NCBI GenBank assembly: GCA_000004695.1 | Contig: CM000155.2 | Location: 3,200,001 to 3,264,000, forward strand | Reading direction: 5' to 3' | DNA length: 64,000 nucleotides | Source: Dictyostelium discoideum | Taxonomy: Eukaryota | Shown here: positions 1,771-59,114 of the stretch, piece by piece | Position numbering within the stretch: the stretch's first letter is position 1 | Layout: each line of letters opens with the position of its first letter | Notes under the pieces: model-generated | The model's database searches: none | What the model was told of the DNA's origin: nothing | The model's input: the letters and a program-made list of their open reading frames with translations, nothing else | Position numbers and translations under genes: made by a program

Positions 1771-3360
1771 ATGGCCGGTGATTTAACTCCTTCATTATTT
1801 TTGAAATATGGTTTTGGTGGTGCTTTGGTATGTTTAATATATTATTAAAAAAAAAACACAAAAAAAAAAAAAAAAACACAAAAAAAAAATGTTGAAAATC
1901 TTACACCACACACAAAATGATCGTTTTTTTTTTTTTAAATTAAATTTTATTTCATATAATTAATCAAAAATTATTTAAAACAAAAAAAAAAAAAAAAAAA
2001 AAAAATATCATTTATTTCTTTGAATAAATTAATTTAATTTAAATAATAATAATAATAATAATAAATAGAGTTGTTCAATTACTCACAGTCTTGTAGTCCC
2101 ACTTGATGTCGTTAAGACTCTCCTCCAAACCAACCCAGGTAATTATTAATATAATTGACAATCACAATCACAATCAATATATATTATATAATAAGAATTC
2201 ATAATATTAATAAATAAAAAAAAAAAAAAAAAAAAAAAATAATTAAAAATAAAGGTAAATACACTGGTATGATGAACGGTTTCAGCACCGTCATTAAGGA
2301 ACAAGGTCCATCTGGTTTATTACAAGGTTTAGGACCAACTGCTGTTGGTTATGCCTTACAAGGTTTCTTAAAATTCGGTTTCTATGAAGTCTTCAAAAAG
2401 ACCTACGCTGATGCTGTTGGTGAAAAAGCCGATCAATTCAGAATCCCAATTTGGTTAGCTGCCTCAGCCACTGCTGAAGTTATTGCTGATATTGCTTTAT
2501 GCCCAAATGAAGCCGTTCGTATTCGTTTAGTTGCTGAACCAACTTTCGCTAAATCACCAGTTGAAGCTTTCGGTAAAATCTTCAAACAAGAAGGTGTCCT
2601 CGGTTTCTACAAAGGTCTCCCACCAATTTTATTAAAAGTAAGTAGTTTTGTATTTAATTTATCAATAAATAAATAAATATACATATACTAATATACACTT
2701 TTTATTTTTATTATTATTATTTTTATTATTATTATTATTTAAATTGGTAATTACAGCAAGGTATGTGAAATTTTTAAAAGATAAATTGTAATTTTTTATA
2801 AATATATATGTAGGTATTTTACTAACAACAACAATTATCCCATTTTATCAATTCAAATTTGAACAAATTTAAAATTATAAATAGTCCCATACACTATGGC
2901 TAAAGTAAGTTGGATAAAATATAATATTAGAATATTTAAAATAATAGTAATCATATTAATATTAATAATAATAATAATATTTTTAAAATTATTTTAGTTC
3001 GCTGTTTTCGAATTTACTGCTGAAAACGTTTACAAAGGTTTAGCCGCCAGTGGTAAACCAAAGGAATCATTAACTGATGGTCAAAAACTCTCTGTTTCAT
3101 TAGGTTCAGGTATTGTTGCAGGTATTGTTGCTGCTATTGTCTCTCAACCAGCTGATACCATTTTATCAAAGATCAATCAAGAAAAGACTGATGGTGGTGT
3201 TGTTAAAGCAATCGGTAACATCATGAGACGTTTAGGTGTTCGTGGTTTATTCTTAGGTCTCCCAACCAGATGTTTCATGGTTGGTACTCTTACTGCCGGT
3301 CAATTCTTCATTTATGATGGTATTAAACAAATGTTAGGTCTCACCCCAGCAAAGAAATAA
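1771..3360 (+). CDS. Mitochondrial phosphate carrier (SLC25A3/Mir1-like mitochondrial carrier family), 6 exons including a 4-nt micro-exon
   Basis: Exons approx 1771..1827, 2069..2138, 2255..2637, 2757..2760, 2885..2904, 2998..3360, with GTATGT/GTAATT/GTAAGT donors and AG acceptors. Spliced product: MAGDLTPSLFLKYGFGGAL|SCSITHSLVVPLDVVKTLLQTNPG|KYTGMMNGFSTVIKEQGPSGLLQGLGPTAVGYALQGFLKFGFYEVFK...GFYKGLPPILLK|Q|VPYTMAK|FAVFEFTAENVYKGL...IYDGIKQMLGLTPAKK*. The KQVPYTMAKF segment matches the phosphate-carrier consensus RQIPYTMMKF. Three carrier repeats are present. Confidence 0.8.
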
Positions 3361-3790
3361 ACAATTTTTAAAAAATAAATAATTATTTCCTTTTTTCAGT
3401 ATTAATAATAATAATAATATAATAATAATAATAATAATAATTTATTTGTTTTCTTTTTTTTTTTTTTTTTTTTAATTGTATATTAATTCTAAGTTTTAAT
3501 AGATATATTAGTTTTAATATATCTCCAATAATTACTCCAACTATCGATAAATCCAATTAAAAAAAAAAAAAAAACAAAGATGATACTCCCAACAATCCAT
3601 TTTGTATTATTTTATTATTGGAAATTGATTGATTTTATTTGGTGATGTAAAAATAATTTGAAGTACAATACCTGATAATAATGGTTCATCTGATTCTTCT
3701 TTAATTATTTGTCCTGTGAATGTTAAACATTATTTATTATAGACAAAGAGGTTTTCTGCATTAACAGTAACTGGAATTAGAACGATAGGA

Positions 3791-3866
3791 GTTATCACAA
3801 CAACGAAAGATTTTTACACTAACTTAGATCTAAGTTAGTGTAAAAATCGTTCGTTGTTGTGATAAC
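3791..3866. repeat. 76-bp near-perfect palindrome (38-bp arms, 1 mismatch, centred on AGATCT), followed by a GC-richer tail to about 4030 with CCAATGG/CAGTGGCAA motifs
   Basis: gttatcacaacaacgaaagatttttacactaacttaga|tctaagttagtgtaaaaatcgttcgttgttgtgataac, read directly from the sequence. The local composition is far less AT-rich than the flanks. Confidence 0.85.
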
Positions 3867-4160
3867 CCGATTCACTAGCATGGTTCCAATGGTAGTACTA
3901 GCATGGGTTCAGTGGCAATAACTTGGATCCAATGGCAACTCAAACAAGAATCCCATAACAGCACTAACTTTAATATAATGGCAGCACTGACTAACTCGGA
4001 TCTAAATAGGGTAATACCACTGCTATAAAAGACTAATTAAGTTTATTCAAATGGTTTAATCAAATTTTTTACATTAAATTTTTCTTTTGTTTAATCCATA
4101 TGCTTAGTTTAATTGACTTCCTTCCAAAAAAAAAAAAATAGAATAAACATTCCACCATAT

Positions 4161-6066
4161 TTACCGACCATATTGTAATAGGTCACAGAGGTAGCTAAAT
4201 TCCAACCATAGGAAGATGTGAAAACTTCTTGTTTTGAAACCGGTTAAAGCTTTTGGAGGATGAGAGTTACAGTTATCGATTTCTGCCATAATATAGGTTC
4301 CAGTACTATCAGTATAAGAGTAGTCATCACTTGAAACTGGTGCATAGTAACCAGCTGGTGTAAAGTAAATTTGATAATTAGTTGGTAATAACATTTGAAT
4401 TATTGCAGTTTGGTAAGCTAAAGAAGCTATGGTAGAAATTTTTTGAAAGTCTAATCCATTGATATTGAGTGAGGATGGATTATTGGTTGGTAAGAAACAT
4501 AATGCAAAGGTTTTACTCATCATACCCCAATCTTGTAAAATGGTATTTTTAATTCTTTGAGCATTTGCCATTTCATTTTCATAATTTTCATTTAAATGAT
4601 CATAGAGTTTACTTAATGTAACTTGATAGGTTGATGGGCCTGAATCATTACTTTCAGCATATAATTCACCAAATTGTACTGCTGACTCACTAATGTTTGC
4701 AATTATTGAACCACCAATTGGTATCTCTGAAATAATTGCATAAAAAACACTGGTAATTGCATCGGTGTAATCTCCATTAACAACTTGGTCAGATGACATA
4801 TCAACATTGATTAAATTTGCCAAGTTTGTTAAATTTGTACTACCTTGACTAAATAATTTACTATAAAAACCAGAATAGTTATCAAATACTAAACGGACAT
4901 TGATTGCGTAGGTGAGTTCATTTTTGATTTGATTTTGAACATATGAAAAATCTTCAGTTGAATGAATTGATGATGGACAAGTTGCATTGGTGACATTAAC
5001 ATAGAAAATTTCTAAATTAACATTAATACTTGTATAAAGTGATCTAATGTCATCAGTATAACCATTTGTTGCATCATCACTAAGGTATTGATATGATGCT
5101 AATAAATCACCACTTGTGTAAGCTGGAAATGGTTCTGGTACTTCACTAACAATTTGGTTTAATGAATAGGTTGGATTTGCAATCCATTGGAAATTAATAT
5201 CACTAGCACTACTTGGTTGAGCTAATACACAATTAACAGTTGAATCAACTCCAAGTTCACCAACGAATCCAATACATAAATTTGGATAATATTGATTGAA
5301 TATTTGATTATTTTCGTTGATACCCCATTGTTGCATTAGATCATTTGCTTTGTAAACATTGGTATTTAAATGATAGTTTGTTTTACTACCATCAATTGAT
5401 GGACCAATATCTAATACTAAATTACCATCCAAACGTGATAAAATGTGACCATCGTTTGTCATTTGCCAAATTTGACCTATTGATTTTGCTTGAACTTTAT
5501 TCATTACTACACTAGTATTATATGATGTACTATTATTTAATACACTTAGACCCCAATAATTATTATTGGAATCCAATTGTTTGCTTTGAAAGTAACCCCA
5601 ATTACCAGTTGGAATTGGTGCTCTTCTAAAAGTTGTCCATTTTTGAGTTGCGTTTCCATTTAAAGGTGCAACACAAATATTCAAACTGTCGATATCAAGG
5701 TATTTACCATTACCTTGGTTGAATTTTATTATTTGTAGTATCAATTGTCCAAATTTGAGTTTTTGAATTTGAATTAAGTTGTACTAATTCAACAAAATAA
5801 CCACCTGATGAAACATCTAAAACAAAATTACCACTGGATGTAAAGATATGACCATCATCAGAAAGAAGCCATGTTTGAATTGACTCAGATGCTACACATT
5901 GGAATGTATTACTGGTTGATAAATAATATGGTGTAATATTATTTGAACCTTTGAATAAACTTTTTGCTACGAATGAGTATTTTGGTTTTGAACTTGTACT
6001 TGTACTTTTTAATTGTTTTTCTTCACTTTGATTTGAAGATTTTGAAATATCTTCAATATTTATCAT
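4161..6066 (-). CDS. Ricin-B (beta-trefoil, QxW repeat) lectin-domain protein with a long C-terminal domain. The reading frame is interrupted near 5710-5745, so this may be a frameshifted gene or pseudogene
   Basis: Two overlapping minus-strand ORFs (5710..6066 and 4161..5744). Repeated QxW motifs ([37 protein letters not shown]) and DGHIxxxxGNxVLD repeats typical of ricin-B domains. The overall architecture resembles the Dictyostelium Cup (calcium up-regulated) lectin family; that link is recalled from memory, not verified. Confidence 0.6.
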
Positions 6067-7129
6067 TTTTTTATTTTTAATTTTTTTATTTTATTTATTT
6101 AAATTTTTTGTTTTAAAAGTTATTTAATTTATTTTTGAGAATGAAAAAAAAAAAAAAAAGTTTTAAAGTATTTATATTTTTTTTTTTTAAGTCTATTATT
6201 TTTATTTATTTTTTTTTTTAACCCATGGTTTAGATCTTTGTTCAAGTCAACACCAACACAGGTGTCAAAATGGAGTGTTATCTTTCACTCATTGCATTTT
6301 TTAGGGTTTGTGTTTTAATTGGTGAAAGTGTTAATCTTTAAAATAAAAAAAAAAAAAAAAGAAAAAAAAATTTAAAAAACTGATTATCGAAAAAAATAAA
6401 AATATCTTCAAAACACCAAAAAAAAAAAAAAAAAATATATAATTTATTTGATAATAGATTTAAAATAATAAATAATTAAAATAAAATTTTAATATATTTT
6501 AGTTGAAAATAATTAGAGTATCACAAAGATTTTTTTTTTTATTTTTTAAATATTGGTTCATTTGAAAAAGGATTAATACAAATTAAATTTTTGATGACTT
6601 TCTCTTAAATTTTTGAAAAAAAAAAAAAAAAAAAAAAAAAATTTATTTATAGTTTATTTATTATTTTTTTTTAAAAAAAATTAAATATAAATGATTTGCA
6701 ACACTTTTATATTAGATATAAACTTAAGTTTTTTATTATTATTATTTTTTTTTAACACTTTTCAATCCTTTTTTTTTTTAATTTCCTTTTTTTTTTTTTT
6801 TTTTTTTTTCCAAAATTCAAAAATTCAAACCCTAGGTATAATTATTTGTTATATAATTATTAAAAATATTTTTATAAAATATATATTTTTAATAATTATA
6901 TAACAAATAATTAGATTAATTTTAGTTCAAACGATGAATCAACAATACTTCAAAAAGAATTAAATTACCAGATTATTTTTGATTGAAATTTATAAATCCT
7001 TTTTTGAAGTGTTTAGTGTTTGGAATATAAACAATCAAATAAAGATTTATAATTTGAATATTCAATTATTTGTTAATTTAATTCTTTTTTTGAAATATTG
7101 TTGAGTCATCATTTCATCACCTCTACTAA

Positions 7130-7163
<34 letters not shown>

Positions 7164-7646
7164 AATAATATATAGTAATAGTTCAACCTCTATCAGCTAC
7201 TAAGGTAATCTTTTCGATTCATCTCAACCAACAACACAATCAATCATCCAAACGTCTTCTTCACTGATAAACTTTGTGTACCTGGTTTATGATTAGGCCA
7301 AACTCAACAACTCACTTCAAATAATCAATAATATTGATACTGGTGCTAACATGATTCATTAGTAGAATGCAATGTTGTGGGTTTCAATGTTCATCATGGC
7401 AGTGGAACTTTACAAACCCATATTCATTTAAATCATTTTTAAAAAAAATATAAAAAATAAATAATAAATAATAACTCACCTATTTACTACTAGTTTATTA
7501 TTGAGAAAAAATATAAAAAAAGGAAATTATATTATAATTACAAATAATTACGATAAATATTTAAATACTAAAAATAATTTTTGATTAAAAATAAAAAAAA
7601 AAAAAAAAAAACAAAAGGTAATTTCGATTTTATTGGACATATCAGT

Positions 7647-8091
7647 GGATAATTGAATTAATTATAATTAACTCAGAATATTTTAAAAAAGATCGAGTTA
7701 TCCCGGAATTTTTTTTTTTATTTTCTTTATTTCTCTATTCCGTTAAGACCTATCGTAGAATTAAATTTGGTTGTATTTATAGAGAAATAAAGAAAATATA
7801 AAAAAAAATGAACTTCGAAAAAAAAAAAGGAACTTCAAAAAAAAAAAACTACATATAAAAAATAAATGTATTTGAGACCCGGTATTTTTGATTTTTTTTT
7901 GTCAATCATACTATTTATTTTATTTATTTATTTATTATATTTTTTATTTTAATTGTGAATAAATGAAAAAAATTAAAAAAAAAAAAATAATATGGCCAAT
8001 GAAAAATTTTTCCCGAAAAAATTGATCTTTTCCGGGATAACTCGATCTTTTTCAAAATAACTTTTTTTGTTCAGAATTAATTCAATTATTC
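7647..8091. mobile_element. ~445-bp foldback/MITE-like element bounded by ~60-bp terminal inverted repeats with internal subterminal hairpins
   Basis: Left end ggataattgaattaatt...gatcgagttatcccgg (7647..7706) and right end ccgggataactcgatc...aattaattcaattattc (8032..8091) are reverse complements: a 16-bp block and a 17-bp block are perfect. Internal hairpin ttttctttatttctctat/atagagaaataaagaaaa (7724..7800). No ORF inside. Confidence 0.5.
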
Positions 8092-8861
8092 ACAGAAAGG
8101 TCCTTTACCAATAATTTTTATTCTTTTTATTTAAATATTTTAATGGTGGATGTTGTGGCTCAAATACAAATATAATTAAACTTGACATCAAAATTAGTCG
8201 TCTTCATCATCATATATGTTGTTAATTTACTCAAATCAAGAAATAAAATAATTATTTTTTATTATTTTTATTTTAAAGATATTAATCAATATTTAATTTC
8301 TTTTTTTATTTGGGTTTTTTTTTTACTTTTTATTTTATTTTATTTATTTTTTAAAGATCTAATTTTTTTTTTTTTTTTTTTTTTCGTTAACGAATAATCA
8401 AAAAAAAAAAAAAAATTAATTTATTATAAAATAAAAATAAAAAAATTAAAAAAATATAAATTTCCATCATTAAAAAACAAAATCTGTGTTTAAATTAATT
8501 TTAAAAATTTTATTTTTTTTTTTAATAAAATTAAATAACTATAAATATAAAATTTTTAATTCAAATTTTCACAAAAAAAAAAAAAAATAATAAATAAATA
8601 TATAATAATCAAATAAATAAAATGACAGAAGTAAGGAAATATCTTGTTAGAAAGGTACCTACAAACAAATCTATTCAGACAAGACAAATGCCAGATAGTG
8701 ATTACAGTTCTCCAGCATTTTATTTATCAGAGGGTTACCCATGTAAAGAGTGGCTTAGAGATAGATTCTACACAGTATTAGTTATAGAATTAAGAGGATT
8801 GAATTATCAAAGAACTCATTTGTCAAAATTCGCAAAAGAGTGTTTGTTAACAAGCAATCAA

Positions 8862-9118
8862 CGATGCATATGAACTACACCCAATCCCAGCATTAGCACC
8901 ATTCATACAGAACTGCATCTGGTTCAGCTCTGAGTTCTATGAAGTTTAATGGGTAAAGACTATCTTCAGTAACTAATTTAACGACGTGAAGTTTTAAAAA
9001 ATTTGGACGATGTATACGAACTACACCCAATCATGTCATTAAATTAATTACTTAAGAGAGTCTTTACCCATTTAACTTCATTAAACTCAGAGCTGAACCA
9101 GATGCAGCACCAGCTGTA
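8862..9118. repeat. Compound repeat: a 25-bp direct repeat (8862..8886 and 9019..9043), each followed by the same ~50-bp segment in opposite orientation (8911..8961 vs 9070..9118)
   Basis: cgatgcatatgaactacacccaatc / cgatgtatacgaactacacccaatc. gaactgcatctggttcagctctgag...tttaatgggtaaagact versus its reverse complement agtctttacccatttaac...ctcagagctgaaccagatgcag. The surrounding 8620..9213 is GC-richer than normal for this genome. Confidence 0.7.
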
Positions 9119-9378
9119 GAACCAGCTGAAGATGACGGTGGTGCCATCAACGAAGCAGATGACTTTAATGAAGATGATGGTGCCAAAGACATCATCGAAC
9201 AACTTCACAATTAAATACAATAAATAAAAAGTTTGTCTTCAAGAAATTAAATTTTTAAATTTTTAATTCTTTATTTTTGTTTTTTTTTTTTTTTAAAAAA
9301 TTAAATCATTTAAAATTAAAAGAAAAAAAAAATTGATTATTAAACAATTATATGTTTGTTTTTTATTTTTTATTTTTT

Positions 9379-10400
9379 TTATTTTACATTATTAACTAAA
9401 GAACCTAATTCTTCAATTTCACATTTGATAACATCACCACTCTTTAAAAAGATTGGATTAGGTTTTCTAATGAAACCAACACCTGAAGGGGTACCAGTGA
9501 AAATGATATCACCAGGATTTAAAGTGAATAATTTTGAAAGATAAGAAACTACAGTTTGAATATTGAAAATGAATTCTTTGGTTGTAGAATTTTGAACTAC
9601 TTGACCATTGAGAGTACATTTGATTGAGAGATTATTCGGGTCGAAATAAGTATCATCAGATAATGCAGCGACTTCAGGATTGATAACTATTGATGGACCA
9701 ATTGGGGCGAATGTATCAAAAGTCTTACCAAGTAACCATTGTGAGTTATTCTTACGTAGTTGCCAATCTCTAGCGGATACATCATTACCAACGGTATAGC
9801 CTGCAACATATTGTAATGCATCAGATTCTGATACGTTCTTTGCTTGTTTACCAATCACCACCACTAATTCAACCTCATAGTCTACTTCATCACTTTCGAC
9901 TGGTTTAATGATTGAGTCGTTTGGACCACAAATTGCATTGTCAAACTTTGAGAATACAATTGGTTCTTTCGGAATTGCCATCTTTGCTTCATTTGCATGC
10001 TCTTTATAATTTAAACCAATACAAATAATCTTACCTGGTTCAATTGGTGCTTTAATTTTACAATTTTCAATTGGTATTCTTCTATTATTAATATTATTAA
10101 TTACCTAAATAATAAAAATAATAATAATAATTATAAATGTTAATAAAATAAAATAAAAAATAAAAAAAAAAAAAGAAAAGAATTAATAATTTTGACATAG
10201 GTTCATACATTTATAACTTTTGACCATTTATCAGTTGAATTTAAAGATAAAAATGAACGCATATCATTTGGTATGCTTTTATCAGCTGAACATAAATCTA
10301 TAATACTATTTTCTAATAATGCACCTAACCTTTTACTTTGTTCACCAACATTTGGTATATAAGTGACTAATTTAATTAATCCAAAATTTGCTCTATTCAT
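9379..10400 (-). CDS. Fumarylacetoacetate hydrolase (FAH) domain protein, FAHD1/2-like, 2 exons
   Basis: Exons approx 10400..10209 and 10104..9379 (donor GTATGA, acceptor TTTAG). Product MNRANFGLIKLVTYIPNVGEQSKRLG...KWSKVIN|VINNINNRRIPIENCKIKAPIEPGKIICIGLNYKEHANEAKMAIPKEPIVFSKF...GTPSGVGFIRKPNPIFLKSGDVIKCEIEELG. The KIICIGLNYKEHA segment matches the FAHD consensus KIVCVGRNYADHA. Confidence 0.8.
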
Positions 10401-10634
10401 TTTTATATGTTATTACAATTAAATATATATATATATATATAAAATGATTTTTATGTTTTATTTAAAGTTGGAATAAATATGTTTTTGCAAAAAAAAAAAA
10501 AATAAAAATAAAAATTAAAAAATAATTGATATTTGAGAATAGGTTTGTGTGTGAAAGTGTGTGTGAAAGTGTGGTGTTTTTACTTTTTTTTTTTTTTTTT
10601 TTGGTTTATCTAAACAATATTAAATGTAACTGAA

Positions 10635-32837: not shown

Positions 32838-33470
32838 CTGAAATAATAAATAAATATTTATTTGAAAATTTTTTTTTTACAAGTGGTTATATAAACAAAT
32901 TAATTTTGGTGTGGTAAACACAAAATAAAAATAAATTTAAATTAAATAATAAAAACACCATAAAAACAGTGTTATTTTTTATTTATTTTAAAATAAATTT
33001 ATGTGATTCTTTTTTTTTAATCCAGCAAAACGTCAACGGAGGTATCTCAATCAATCACTATTTTCTAAATATTAATTTTTTATTATTAAACCATTATATT
33101 GAATTAATTAGAATAAAAAAATAAAATAAAAAAATAAAATAAAAAATAAAATAAAATGATAAAAAAAAAAAAAAAAAAAAAGAAATTAAACAAAAATTAA
33201 AGAAAATTATTTCGAAATTGTTTTAAACAATCATACAGTTTAAAATTAAATAAATTGTTTTAAACCACCACTTTTTTAAAACATATGAAAATAAATAAGA
33301 AATAATAATAAAAAGATAAAAAAAGAATTTTTTTTTTTTTTTTTAATATTATATATTCTTGTTGTCAGTATTGTTACTATAATTAATCCCATGGGTTTTT
33401 TATTATTATTATTTTTAATTCTTTTATATTTGAGATTATTATTAATTAAATAACTTTAAGTTTTTTTTTA

Positions 33471-33680
33471 TTTTTCTATGCACAAAATTACCATATTAAT
33501 TTCGGCAGCCATATTAATTTCAGCCTAAAATAGTTTATCTGTTCTTGACAAAATTAATATGGCTGCTGAAATTAATATGGTAATTTTGGGCATAGAAAAA
33601 TAAAAAAAACTATCAGACATAAGTCCCATGCCAAAATTATCATATTAATTTCAGCAGCCATATTAATTTTGGCATGGGAC
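33471..33680. repeat. Two tandem, sequence-related hairpins: IR 33471..33520 / 33551..33600 (about 50-bp arms, 2 mismatches) and IR 33623..33639 / 33664..33680. The loop of the second hairpin carries the 28-nt core motif of the first hairpin's arm
   Basis: caaaattaccatattaatttcggcagccatattaattt versus aaattaatatggctgctgaaattaatatggtaattttg. gtcccatgccaaaatta...tcatattaatttcagcagccatattaat...taattttggcatgggac. Confidence 0.8.
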
Positions 33681-35026: not shown

Positions 35027-35099
35027 GCCTGGATGGCTCAGTAGGCAGAGCGAGCGGCTGTTAACCGCTAGGTCCATGGTTCGATCCCATGTCTAGGCG
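35027..35099 (+). tRNA. tRNA-Asn (anticodon GUU)
   Basis: Cloverleaf folded by hand. Acceptor stem GCCTGGA/TCTAGGC (one G-U pair). D-stem GCTC/GAGC. Anticodon stem AGCGG/CCGCT with loop CTGTTAA, giving GTT at positions 34-36. T-stem CATGG/CCATG with loop TTCGATC. Discriminator G. Total 73 nt. Confidence 0.9.
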
Positions 35100-36304: not shown

Positions 36305-36527
36305 TTTTTTAAATTTTTTTTTTTTTTTTTTTAATAATTTTTATTTATGATTCAAAATTTTGGAAATATTTGATCAATTTAAATATAAAAAAAAAATGAT
36401 AAAAAAAAAAAAAAATAATAAAAAAAAAAAAAAAATAATAATTAAAAAAAAAAATTATTCTCTTAATTTGGAAATAAAAACAGTTTGATCCCTAATTTAT
36501 TATAAAAAATTTAAAATAAACTAAAAT

Positions 36528-36696
36528 ATATTCAAACTTTTTAATATTTGTTCAACTGATGAAGATAAACTTCTTTGTTAACTACATCAGTAGAACAAAT
36601 ATTAAAAAGTTTGAATATTATTTAATTTATTTTAAATTAATATTCAAACTTTTTAATATTTGTTCAACTGATGTAGTTAACAAAGAAGATAAAATT
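36528..36696. repeat. ~170-bp compound palindrome in the TPS/P450 bidirectional promoter. Arrangement: A1(36528..36561) - B(36562..36584) - A1 inverted (36585..36618) - spacer - A2 direct (36640..36673) - B inverted (36674..36696)
   Basis: A = atattcaaactttttaatatttgttcaactgatg. B = aagataaacttctttgttaacta. The inverted copies have 1-2 mismatches. Lies between the TPS ATG (36304, minus) and the P450 ATG (36989, plus). Confidence 0.85.
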
Positions 36697-36909
36697 AATT
36701 AATTGAATGTTTTTATTTTGGAAATGGTCTTTTTATCCACGTAATAAACTGTTAATTAAAAAATAACAATCAGATTATAAAAAAAAAAAAATTATATTTT
36801 TAACAGATTTACCCTCAAAATATCAAAGGGGTTTTTTTTTTTTTAATTTTCCAAAAAAAAAAAAAAAAAAAAAAAAAACCAGTTGTGTTTTTTTAGGGCT
36901 TTATAAAAA

Positions 36910-58958: not shown

Positions 58959-59049
58959 TNNNNNNNNNNNNNNNNNNNNNNNNNNNNNNNNNNNNNNNNN
59001 NNNNNNNNNNNNNNNNNNNNNNNNNNNNNNNNNNNNNNNNNNNNNNNNN
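58959..59049. other. Run of 91 N: assembly gap immediately upstream of the 59115 gene
   Basis: Literal n characters. Flanked by poly(A)/poly(T). Confidence 0.99.
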
Positions 59050-59114
59050 NNNNNNNNNNTTTTTTTTTTTTTTTTTTTTTTTGTGACTACTTCGCACAAA
59101 CACAACCACAAAAA

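Follow-up and report, generated by a model that had tools for sequence, protein, structure and literature searches.

A lineage-restricted 76-bp palindrome beside a degenerate repeat array downstream of mcfN in Dictyostelium discoideum

Introduction

In plants, inverted duplication constitutes a route to young MIRNA genes, the arms of which derive from the future target gene. Template-switch mutations make perfect hairpins in one event, and these are mostly non-functional; in primates, more than 6,000 template-switch hairpins stand against 18 miRNA genes (>300 to 1), with transcription as the limiting factor (Monttinen, Frilander and Loytynoja 2023, PMC10710096). A review is available on fold-back priming at short inverted repeats (PMC7999016), which in the classical experiments gives rise to large palindromic chromosomes. 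For Dictyostelium discoideum itself, the near-perfect hairpins mir-1184, located in a pseudogene exon, and mir-1185 are established sources of DrnB-dependent miRNAs with sequenced 5p/3p reads; these hairpins of 105-143 nt exhibit near-full complementarity, fold with about -0.6 to -0.7 kcal/mol/nt and reside in or beside pseudogene or intergenic DNA (Liao 2018, PMC6161686, Table S1). Amoebozoan miRNA repertoires are small and lineage-specific, and the literature surveyed contained no description of template-switch hairpins in Amoebozoa.

Here, we describe a palindrome located in a 64-kb stretch of D. discoideum DNA, in the following termed the window. The palindrome is real and statistically striking, and its explanation is most likely ordinary, i.e., a very recent copying error next to a degenerate repeat of older date and a defunct gene. 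Just as in template-switch hairpins, the reverse complement of adjacent sequence replaces a stretch of DNA in a single lineage, the centre of symmetry falls on a pre-existing short palindrome, a feature shared with fold-back priming, and with ~36-38 bp the stem has the size considered for miRNA hairpins that arise de novo. On the other hand, the event is reconstructed here from two partial outgroups instead of a full ancestral reconstruction, and we are dealing with a local palindrome of 76 bp and not with an entire palindromic chromosome. The same-species hairpins mir-1184 and mir-1185 resemble the structure in complementarity, energy and genomic setting, whereas the hairpin in the window is shorter (76-88 nt), closes with an apical loop of just ~4 nt and does not occur in the published tables searched. 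Young plant MIRNA genes likewise feature near-perfect hairpins that originated by inverted duplication of pre-existing sequence; here, however, the arms stem from non-coding sequence and a second copy was not identified.

A single complex palindrome with strong folding

The palindrome is composed of two 38-nt arms that are 97% complementary (37 of 38 positions) and meet with zero spacer at a central AGATCT (Table 1). In this respect the original prediction, which was derived from the letters of the sequence, proved accurate, and the same applies to the stated distance of about 430 bp from a carrier gene, as the palindrome starts 431 nt past the stop codon of mcfN. A comparable match did not occur in any of 100 dinucleotide-preserving shuffles of the window. 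When the 64 kb were scanned for tight palindromes (spacer of at most 8, arms of at least 16, at most one mismatch), 3791-3866 was the only complex one, all other hits being A/T runs or the assembly gap. A scan for bacterial promoters and terminators, which is inapplicable to a eukaryote, simply recovered the palindrome.

RNA folding of the region 3760-4040, a check that had been proposed along with the prediction, yielded z-scores of -7.3 on the plus and -8.1 on the minus strand, and the excess folding energy comes entirely from the palindrome. Folded as DNA, the hairpin reaches z = -14.3. The segment 3785-3872 folds as RNA with -52 kcal/mol on either strand, equivalent to -0.59 to -0.63 kcal/mol/nt, and the minimum free energy structure of the hairpin comprises 36 base pairs and a 4-nt apical loop.

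Table 1. Positions of the palindrome, its neighbours and other features within the window.
Feature	Positions	Strand	Remarks
mcfN last exon (mitochondrial phosphate carrier)	2998..3360	+	upstream gene; stop codon 3358-3360
Spacer between mcfN and FAA-hydrolase-family gene	3361..9385		
Upstream flank, 25% GC	3605..3790	+	homologous (~70-77%) to L008 12242-12513
Left arm	3791..3828	.	starts as a continuation of the upstream sequence that D. cf. discoideum L008 also has
Perfect 10-nt palindrome TTAGATCTAA	3824..3833	.	exact symmetry centre, inside repeat unit
Right arm	3829..3866	.	inverted copy of left arm; sole mismatch G3849 vs. A3808
GC-rich tail, degenerate ~23-nt repeat array, unit ~CACTAACaTGGaTAcAATGGCAG	3867..4050	+	homologous to L004 10063-10221
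AT-rich spacer	4051..4140	.	ends in A13 (4126-4138); abuts truncation point of cup pseudogene
cup-family pseudogene (calcium up-regulated protein, ricin-B lectin)	4141..6066	-	truncated, frameshifted
Imperfect palindromic region	6909..7114		~190 nt, upstream of cup pseudogene
MITE-like insertion	7635..8103		469 bp
Second inverted duplication	8913..9107		arms 8913-8989 and 9031-9107
FAA-hydrolase-family (fumarylacetoacetase) gene	9386..10463		
Alternating inverted copies of ~45-59-nt unit	33462..33674		pairs 33462-33520/33551-33609 and 33546-33589/33631-33674
tRNA-Asn	35027..35099		
Nested imperfect hairpins	36508..36707		
Assembly gap	58960..59059		100 N

The adjoining GC-rich repeat array

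In agreement with the original prediction, the approximately 160 bp that follow the palindrome are rich in GC: the segment 3867-4030 contains 40.2% GC compared with 21% for the whole window and ranks among the top 1.1% of 164-nt windows. The reiterated motifs listed at the time for this tail are also real and form part of a degenerate ~23-nt repeat (families D1 and D2), family D1 including the unit ends GGATCCAA, TAATATAA and GGATCTAA that are related to TTAGATCTAA. The designation of the tail as structured, on the other hand, did not hold. Folded alone, 3867-4050 performed no better than shuffles (z = -0.12 on the minus and +0.37 on the plus strand), and its consensus fold is weak and devoid of convincing covariation. 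With z-scores near zero and a weak consensus fold, the tail was rejected as a structured RNA. It evolves like neighbouring sequence and bears no sign of constraint. A homologue of this repeat with 40% GC and a period of 23 nt (window 3867-4050, L004 9995-10215) was not present in the searchable libraries, and a scan of metagenomes with a three-anchor pattern of the array retrieved 88 loci, none of them homologous and all of them chance matches.

Occurrence among Dictyostelium assemblies

L003, an independent assembly of D. discoideum, shares 99.76% identity with the window along 11 kb, rising to 100% between 3560 and 4135, so the palindrome is not an assembly artefact. Among the assemblies compared, it is restricted to an AX4-like lineage, i.e., the window and L003 (~99.8% identical), and absent from two other assemblies labelled D. 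discoideum, two of D. cf. discoideum and those of D. citrinum, D. dimigraforme and D. firmibasis. The assemblies L006 and L007, both carrying the label D. discoideum, are ~6% diverged from the window at this locus.

The sequences on the two sides of the palindrome have separate homologies. The array is represented in D. cf. discoideum L004 by ~9 units with a period of 23, without the palindrome, and the tail from 3873 to 4050 aligns to L004 10063-10221 with 83% identity over aligned columns and indels of 15, 4, 2 and 2 nt. The upstream flank is present in D. cf. discoideum L008, where array and palindrome are absent, and the alignment (window 3605-3808, L008 12242-12513) ends at GGAGTTAT, the start of the left arm. 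Flank and array are missing as a whole from L006 and L007, with the sequence on both sides kept, and the boundaries of the indels between strains lie at ~3618-3634 and ~4050-4140 and not at 3791 or 3866. The corresponding units in L004 and L008 run up to a common A-run, behind which the same conserved sequence follows, and L004 retains an AATAAA ~30 nt before it; judged from these shared ends, flank and array may form a single non-coding unit of some age with a poly(A) end. The upstream flank has neither a Pfam match nor a detected RNA-family homology; a composite of its L008 frames matched none of 5.8 billion proteins, and its 40-residue ORF, searched against 1.84 billion representatives, returned two weak, repeat-inflated matches (bacterial cohesin and SdrD-type) that were judged spurious. 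As protein searches and Pfam gave no credible match, the flank was rejected as a protein pseudogene.

Proteins clustering with McfN are encoded in D. discoideum AX4 and in nine other Dictyostelium assemblies. In D. firmibasis, D. dimigraforme and D. citrinum, a convergent FAA-hydrolase-family gene is located ~100-250 bp past mcfN, implying that ~6 kb were added in the window. The spacer between the two genes is hypervariable, ranging from ~0.1 to 6 kb across nine Dictyostelium assemblies, and differs in every assembly examined in gene content, including small minus-strand genes: it spans 1.3 kb in L004, 3-5 kb with a zf-B_box/FNIP-type gene in L006, L007 and L008, and 6 kb with the cup pseudogene in the window and L003. 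This spacer is a rearrangement hot spot, which the palindrome locus marks. The cup copy in the window suffered a 20-nt deletion and a frameshift at ~4241, and resembles other family members up to about residue 645 of 758-769 only; when residues 601-758 of CupE were compared with 3300-4300 by tblastn, only residues 604-645 matched, at 4240-4115. Frameshift and loss of homology identify it as a truncated pseudogene. The lineage-specific block of 6 kb around the palindrome holds this truncated, frameshifted gene and, in addition, a second inverted duplication, and together with a MITE-like insertion these point to a region that was repeatedly rearranged. Exact sequence look-ups with AX4 McfN and the 527-residue cup ORF returned no record.

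Probable origin by fold-back copying

Our preferred reading, which we consider likely to be correct, is that the palindrome represents a young inverted duplication of the AX4-like lineage, generated by a one-step intrastrand template switch or fold-back priming in non-coding, rearrangement-prone DNA. The origin of the arms was read directly from a comparison of L004 9997-10063 with window 3817-3873. At its end, the left arm (CACTAACTTAGATCT) agrees with the first array unit of L004 (CACTAGGTTAGATAT) at 12 of 15 positions, and the symmetry centre TTAGATCTAA lies within the unit corresponding to this first unit. In L004, the first unit is followed by another two to three (66 nt); in their place, the window carries its own preceding 38 nt as reverse complement and then a 6-nt filler. 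Since the end of the left arm matches an L004 unit while the right arm replaces array units, the left arm appears to be ancestral and the right arm its copy. That the arms differ at 1 of 38 positions argues for a recent event.

The site before the event would have consisted of the old non-coding flank (3605-3790) followed by the degenerate 23-nt repeat array, one unit of which held the 10-nt palindrome TTAGATCTAA as the proposed nucleation site. A nascent or resected 3' end may have folded back at this point and copied the preceding ~33 nt as reverse complement, before the copied end rejoined the array further downstream and thereby deleted about two to three units. The product would be a spacer-less palindrome of 38+38 nt with arms differing at one base. 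The window rejoins the array at CACTAGCATGG after the 6-nt filler CCGATT, which the fold-back account leaves unexplained. Restriction to one lineage, distinct homologies on either side and the placement of the centre are shown by the comparisons, whereas we infer the fold-back mechanism from two partial outgroups, L004 and L008, neither of which has both flanks, such that the ancestor of the junction is incompletely reconstructed. The palindrome is probably neutral and has no conserved function, and small RNAs could arise from it only if read-through from cup or another promoter transcribes the locus.

Alternative explanations

The original prediction had put forward the hairpin as a candidate precursor of a hairpin RNA or miRNA. 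Of this proposal, the fold-back itself and an energy in the range of pre-miRNAs stand, while the published tables, the conservation pattern and the structure of the tail lend it no support, and a miRNA gene at this site is unsupported and improbable. Spelled out as a newborn hairpin-RNA locus (proto-miRNA or siRNA), the idea would require a minus-strand transcript, arising by read-through from cup or from a start after the T13 run at 4138-4126, and dicing by DrnB into ~21-nt RNAs. We regard such a locus as unlikely. It is compatible with a template-switch origin and differs by its claim that the hairpin is expressed and processed. Its folding energy lies below -0.2 kcal/mol/nt and at least 60% of the duplex is paired, as demanded for miRNAs by Liao 2018 (PMC6161686) after Kozomara and Griffiths-Jones; the same set of criteria also comprises at least 10 reads from both arms, a 2-nt 3' overhang, homogeneous 5' ends and loss in drnB-. 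Accepted pre-miRNAs of D. discoideum range from -0.43 to -0.73 kcal/mol/nt (Liao 2018, PMC6161686; Edelbroek 2024, PMC11014262), and with a stem of ~36-39 bp, one mismatch and -0.6 kcal/mol/nt the hairpin falls inside this range and would be a plausible Dicer substrate if transcribed. The precedent of mir-1184 and mir-1185 also speaks for this possibility.

With regard to transcription, the AATAAA at 3374 suggests that the mRNA of mcfN would end well before the hairpin. On the minus strand, the annotated cup model extends to 3875, i.e., to within 9 nt of the hairpin, and an AATAAA motif at 3733-3738 lies just beyond it. It is conceivable that the cup pseudogene, if still expressed, gives rise to a read-through transcript carrying tail and hairpin, but another minus-strand AATAAA at 4042-4047 could end such transcripts before the tail. 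According to Liao 2018 (PMC6161686), transcription of D. discoideum pri-miRNAs starts at a G that follows a run of T, and for pri-mir-1176/1177 this site lies 116-281 nt upstream. A T13 run followed by G occurs on the minus strand at 4138-4125, 259 nt upstream of the hairpin and within the reported distance, and a T20 run at 3454-3473, also followed by G, occurs on the plus strand ~315 nt upstream. However, the 64 kb contain 170 runs of at least 12 T, 65 of them followed by G (about once per kb), a frequency at which the motif carries little information.

Further observations weigh against a newborn hairpin-RNA locus. None of ten 12-mers that tile both arms occurs in the text supplements of Liao 2018 (PMC6161686) and Edelbroek 2024 (PMC11014262), none of six DNA-alphabet 12-mers of the arms occurs in the supplements of Meier 2016 (PMC4894637), and none of 31 tabulated mature D. 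discoideum miRNAs maps to the window; to be missing from the miRNA tables of all three studies is a weak negative, as criteria were strict and siRNA-type loci were not tabulated. The ten D. discoideum candidates in Table 3 of Edelbroek 2024 have loops of 41-102, which is impossible for a 76-nt hairpin, and known precursors are longer (101-179 nt). Cluster_1861, a 'perfect hairpin' candidate from the same work, has 162 nt and -1.05 kcal/mol/nt and was rejected as a different locus. In addition, a second copy, and hence an obvious target, was not found in the ~190 kb of Dictyostelium DNA searched, and the hairpin is not conserved, being absent from all assemblies compared except L003. The most far-reaching version, a snapshot of de novo hairpin-RNA birth in which a template-switch stem within the transcribed 3' trailer of the cup pseudogene is diced by DrnB to 21-nt RNAs in AX4-type strains only, has an even smaller chance of being true.

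Another view, to which we assign a low probability, takes flank and array (3605-4050, plus strand) as the retroposed copy or the gene of a polyadenylated non-coding RNA, in which the GC-rich tail would be the meaningful element and the palindrome a later lesion. The common A-run at the end of the units in L004 and L008 and the AATAAA ~30 nt before it in L004 agree with this view. L006 and L007 furthermore exhibit an 'empty' site with both flanks intact, and a GC content of 40% is typical of Dictyostelium RNA genes rather than of spacer DNA. These arguments are countered by the shuffle-like folding and the lack of convincing covariation. Neither did Rfam 15 provide a hit: at gathering thresholds only the tRNA-Asn at 35027 passed in the window, and in a permissive search the hairpin matched unrelated plant and animal miRNA models below threshold, e.g., MIR1513 with 48.8 bits where 95 are required. 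DUSE-dependent small ncRNA genes of Dictyostelium are preceded at a distance of ~60 nt by an element with the consensus [AT]CCCA[CT]AA. A DUSE-like TCCCATAA is located at 3951-3958, but the window contains 7 matches vs. 10.2 expected, this one sits in a 15-nt insertion missing from L004, and no structured RNA was found downstream of it. A DUSE-dependent small ncRNA gene was therefore rejected, the motif occurring at chance frequency and not being conserved. As A-runs are ubiquitous, a poly(A) tail and a target-site duplication cannot be established, and a parent copy was not found in the sequences searched.

It is highly improbable that the tail is the last coding exon of a cup-family gene with the palindrome in its 3' UTR. 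A public gene model of 675 residues (GCA_054883475.1) does splice the cup pseudogene into the GC-rich tail on the minus strand, where a frame remains open for 51 codons up to a stop at 3875-3877, the L003 gene model ends at the corresponding position, and the GC content is exon-like. Against this reading, the last ~115 residues of full-length Cup (758-769) have no similarity to the tail in tblastn, in which matches end at about residue 645, so that tail and hairpin were rejected as a Cup C-terminus. The copy in the window is frameshifted at ~4241, the L004 array is interrupted by stops in all three minus-strand frames, differs by the four indels listed above and has no cup gene beside it, and a period of 23 nt keeps no reading frame. 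Because the tail is unlike the Cup C-terminus and is closed in L004, which is without an adjacent cup gene, the extension of the 675-residue model is regarded as an annotation artefact.

The original prediction also offered the end of a DNA transposon as an alternative. In this reading, palindrome and array would mark where a DNA transposon or foldback element ends, with (sub)terminal repeats bound by a transposase, and we consider it very unlikely. It is true that short reiterated units of ~23 nt beside an inverted repeat look like subterminal repeats, that CACTA stands at the start of the unit and that the lineage-specific block does contain a MITE-like insertion. However, a second arm or an inverted copy of the array is absent from the window and eight related loci, a palindrome with zero spacer bounds nothing, the array occurs without palindrome in L004 and the flank without array in L008, the strain indel boundaries are off the palindrome ends, and the flanks AGGA (left) and CCGA (right) constitute no target-site duplication. 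The dispersed copies for which a search had been recommended were not encountered, further copies of arm or array numbering zero in the 64 kb of the window and ~125 kb from related loci (together the ~190 kb mentioned above). The MITE-like insertion shares inverted repeats and the lineage-specific block with the palindrome, whereas its two 74-nt arms enclose 321 nt and L006 and L007 have an empty site whose limits match its ends exactly. In a tRNA scan the nearest tRNA was 31 kb from the palindrome, which therefore has no context of tRNA-targeted retroelements.

Implications

As found, the palindrome is an ordinary by-product of genome instability. It cautions against taking a striking perfect hairpin beside GC-rich sequence as evidence of an RNA gene, the more so as one public annotation already makes the adjacent repeat into a spurious coding exon. 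Should the hairpin be processed, it would constitute a dated, polymorphic case of template-switch-driven hairpin birth in Amoebozoa, and de novo birth of a hairpin RNA, if true, would offer a natural presence/absence system for new miRNA-like genes outside plants and animals.

Further inverted repeats in the window

The second inverted duplication, 5 kb from the palindrome, forms a larger hairpin with 77-nt arms (90% complementary), a 41-nt loop, -107 kcal/mol and an RNA z-score of -17.8. It is single-copy in L004, L006 and L008 and thus private to the AX4 lineage. The hairpin resides inside a 127-residue L003 gene model (about 8620-9212, plus strand) and is possibly intronic; the published miRNAs that were checked have no match in it. 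The terminal inverted repeats of the MITE-like insertion, which lies 4 kb from the palindrome, measure 74 nt and are 80% complementary; L006 and L007 match the window up to exactly 7634 and again from beyond 8103, and the ends of the insertion, TTATT and TTTAC, feature no clear target-site duplication. The imperfect palindromic region upstream of the cup pseudogene is AT-rich and 77% self-complementary (BLAST).

Two further repeats flank the tRNA-Asn gene. About 1.4 kb upstream of it, three alternating inverted copies of a unit starting with AAATTAATATGGCTGCTGAAATTAATATGG form pairs that are 97% and 95% complementary in the order given in Table 1 and may represent a foldback-type repeat. About 1.4 kb downstream, a position type used by tRNA-targeted retroelements of Dictyostelium, nested imperfect hairpins are found with arms of 61-73 nt, 88-90% complementarity and loops of 9-11 nt.
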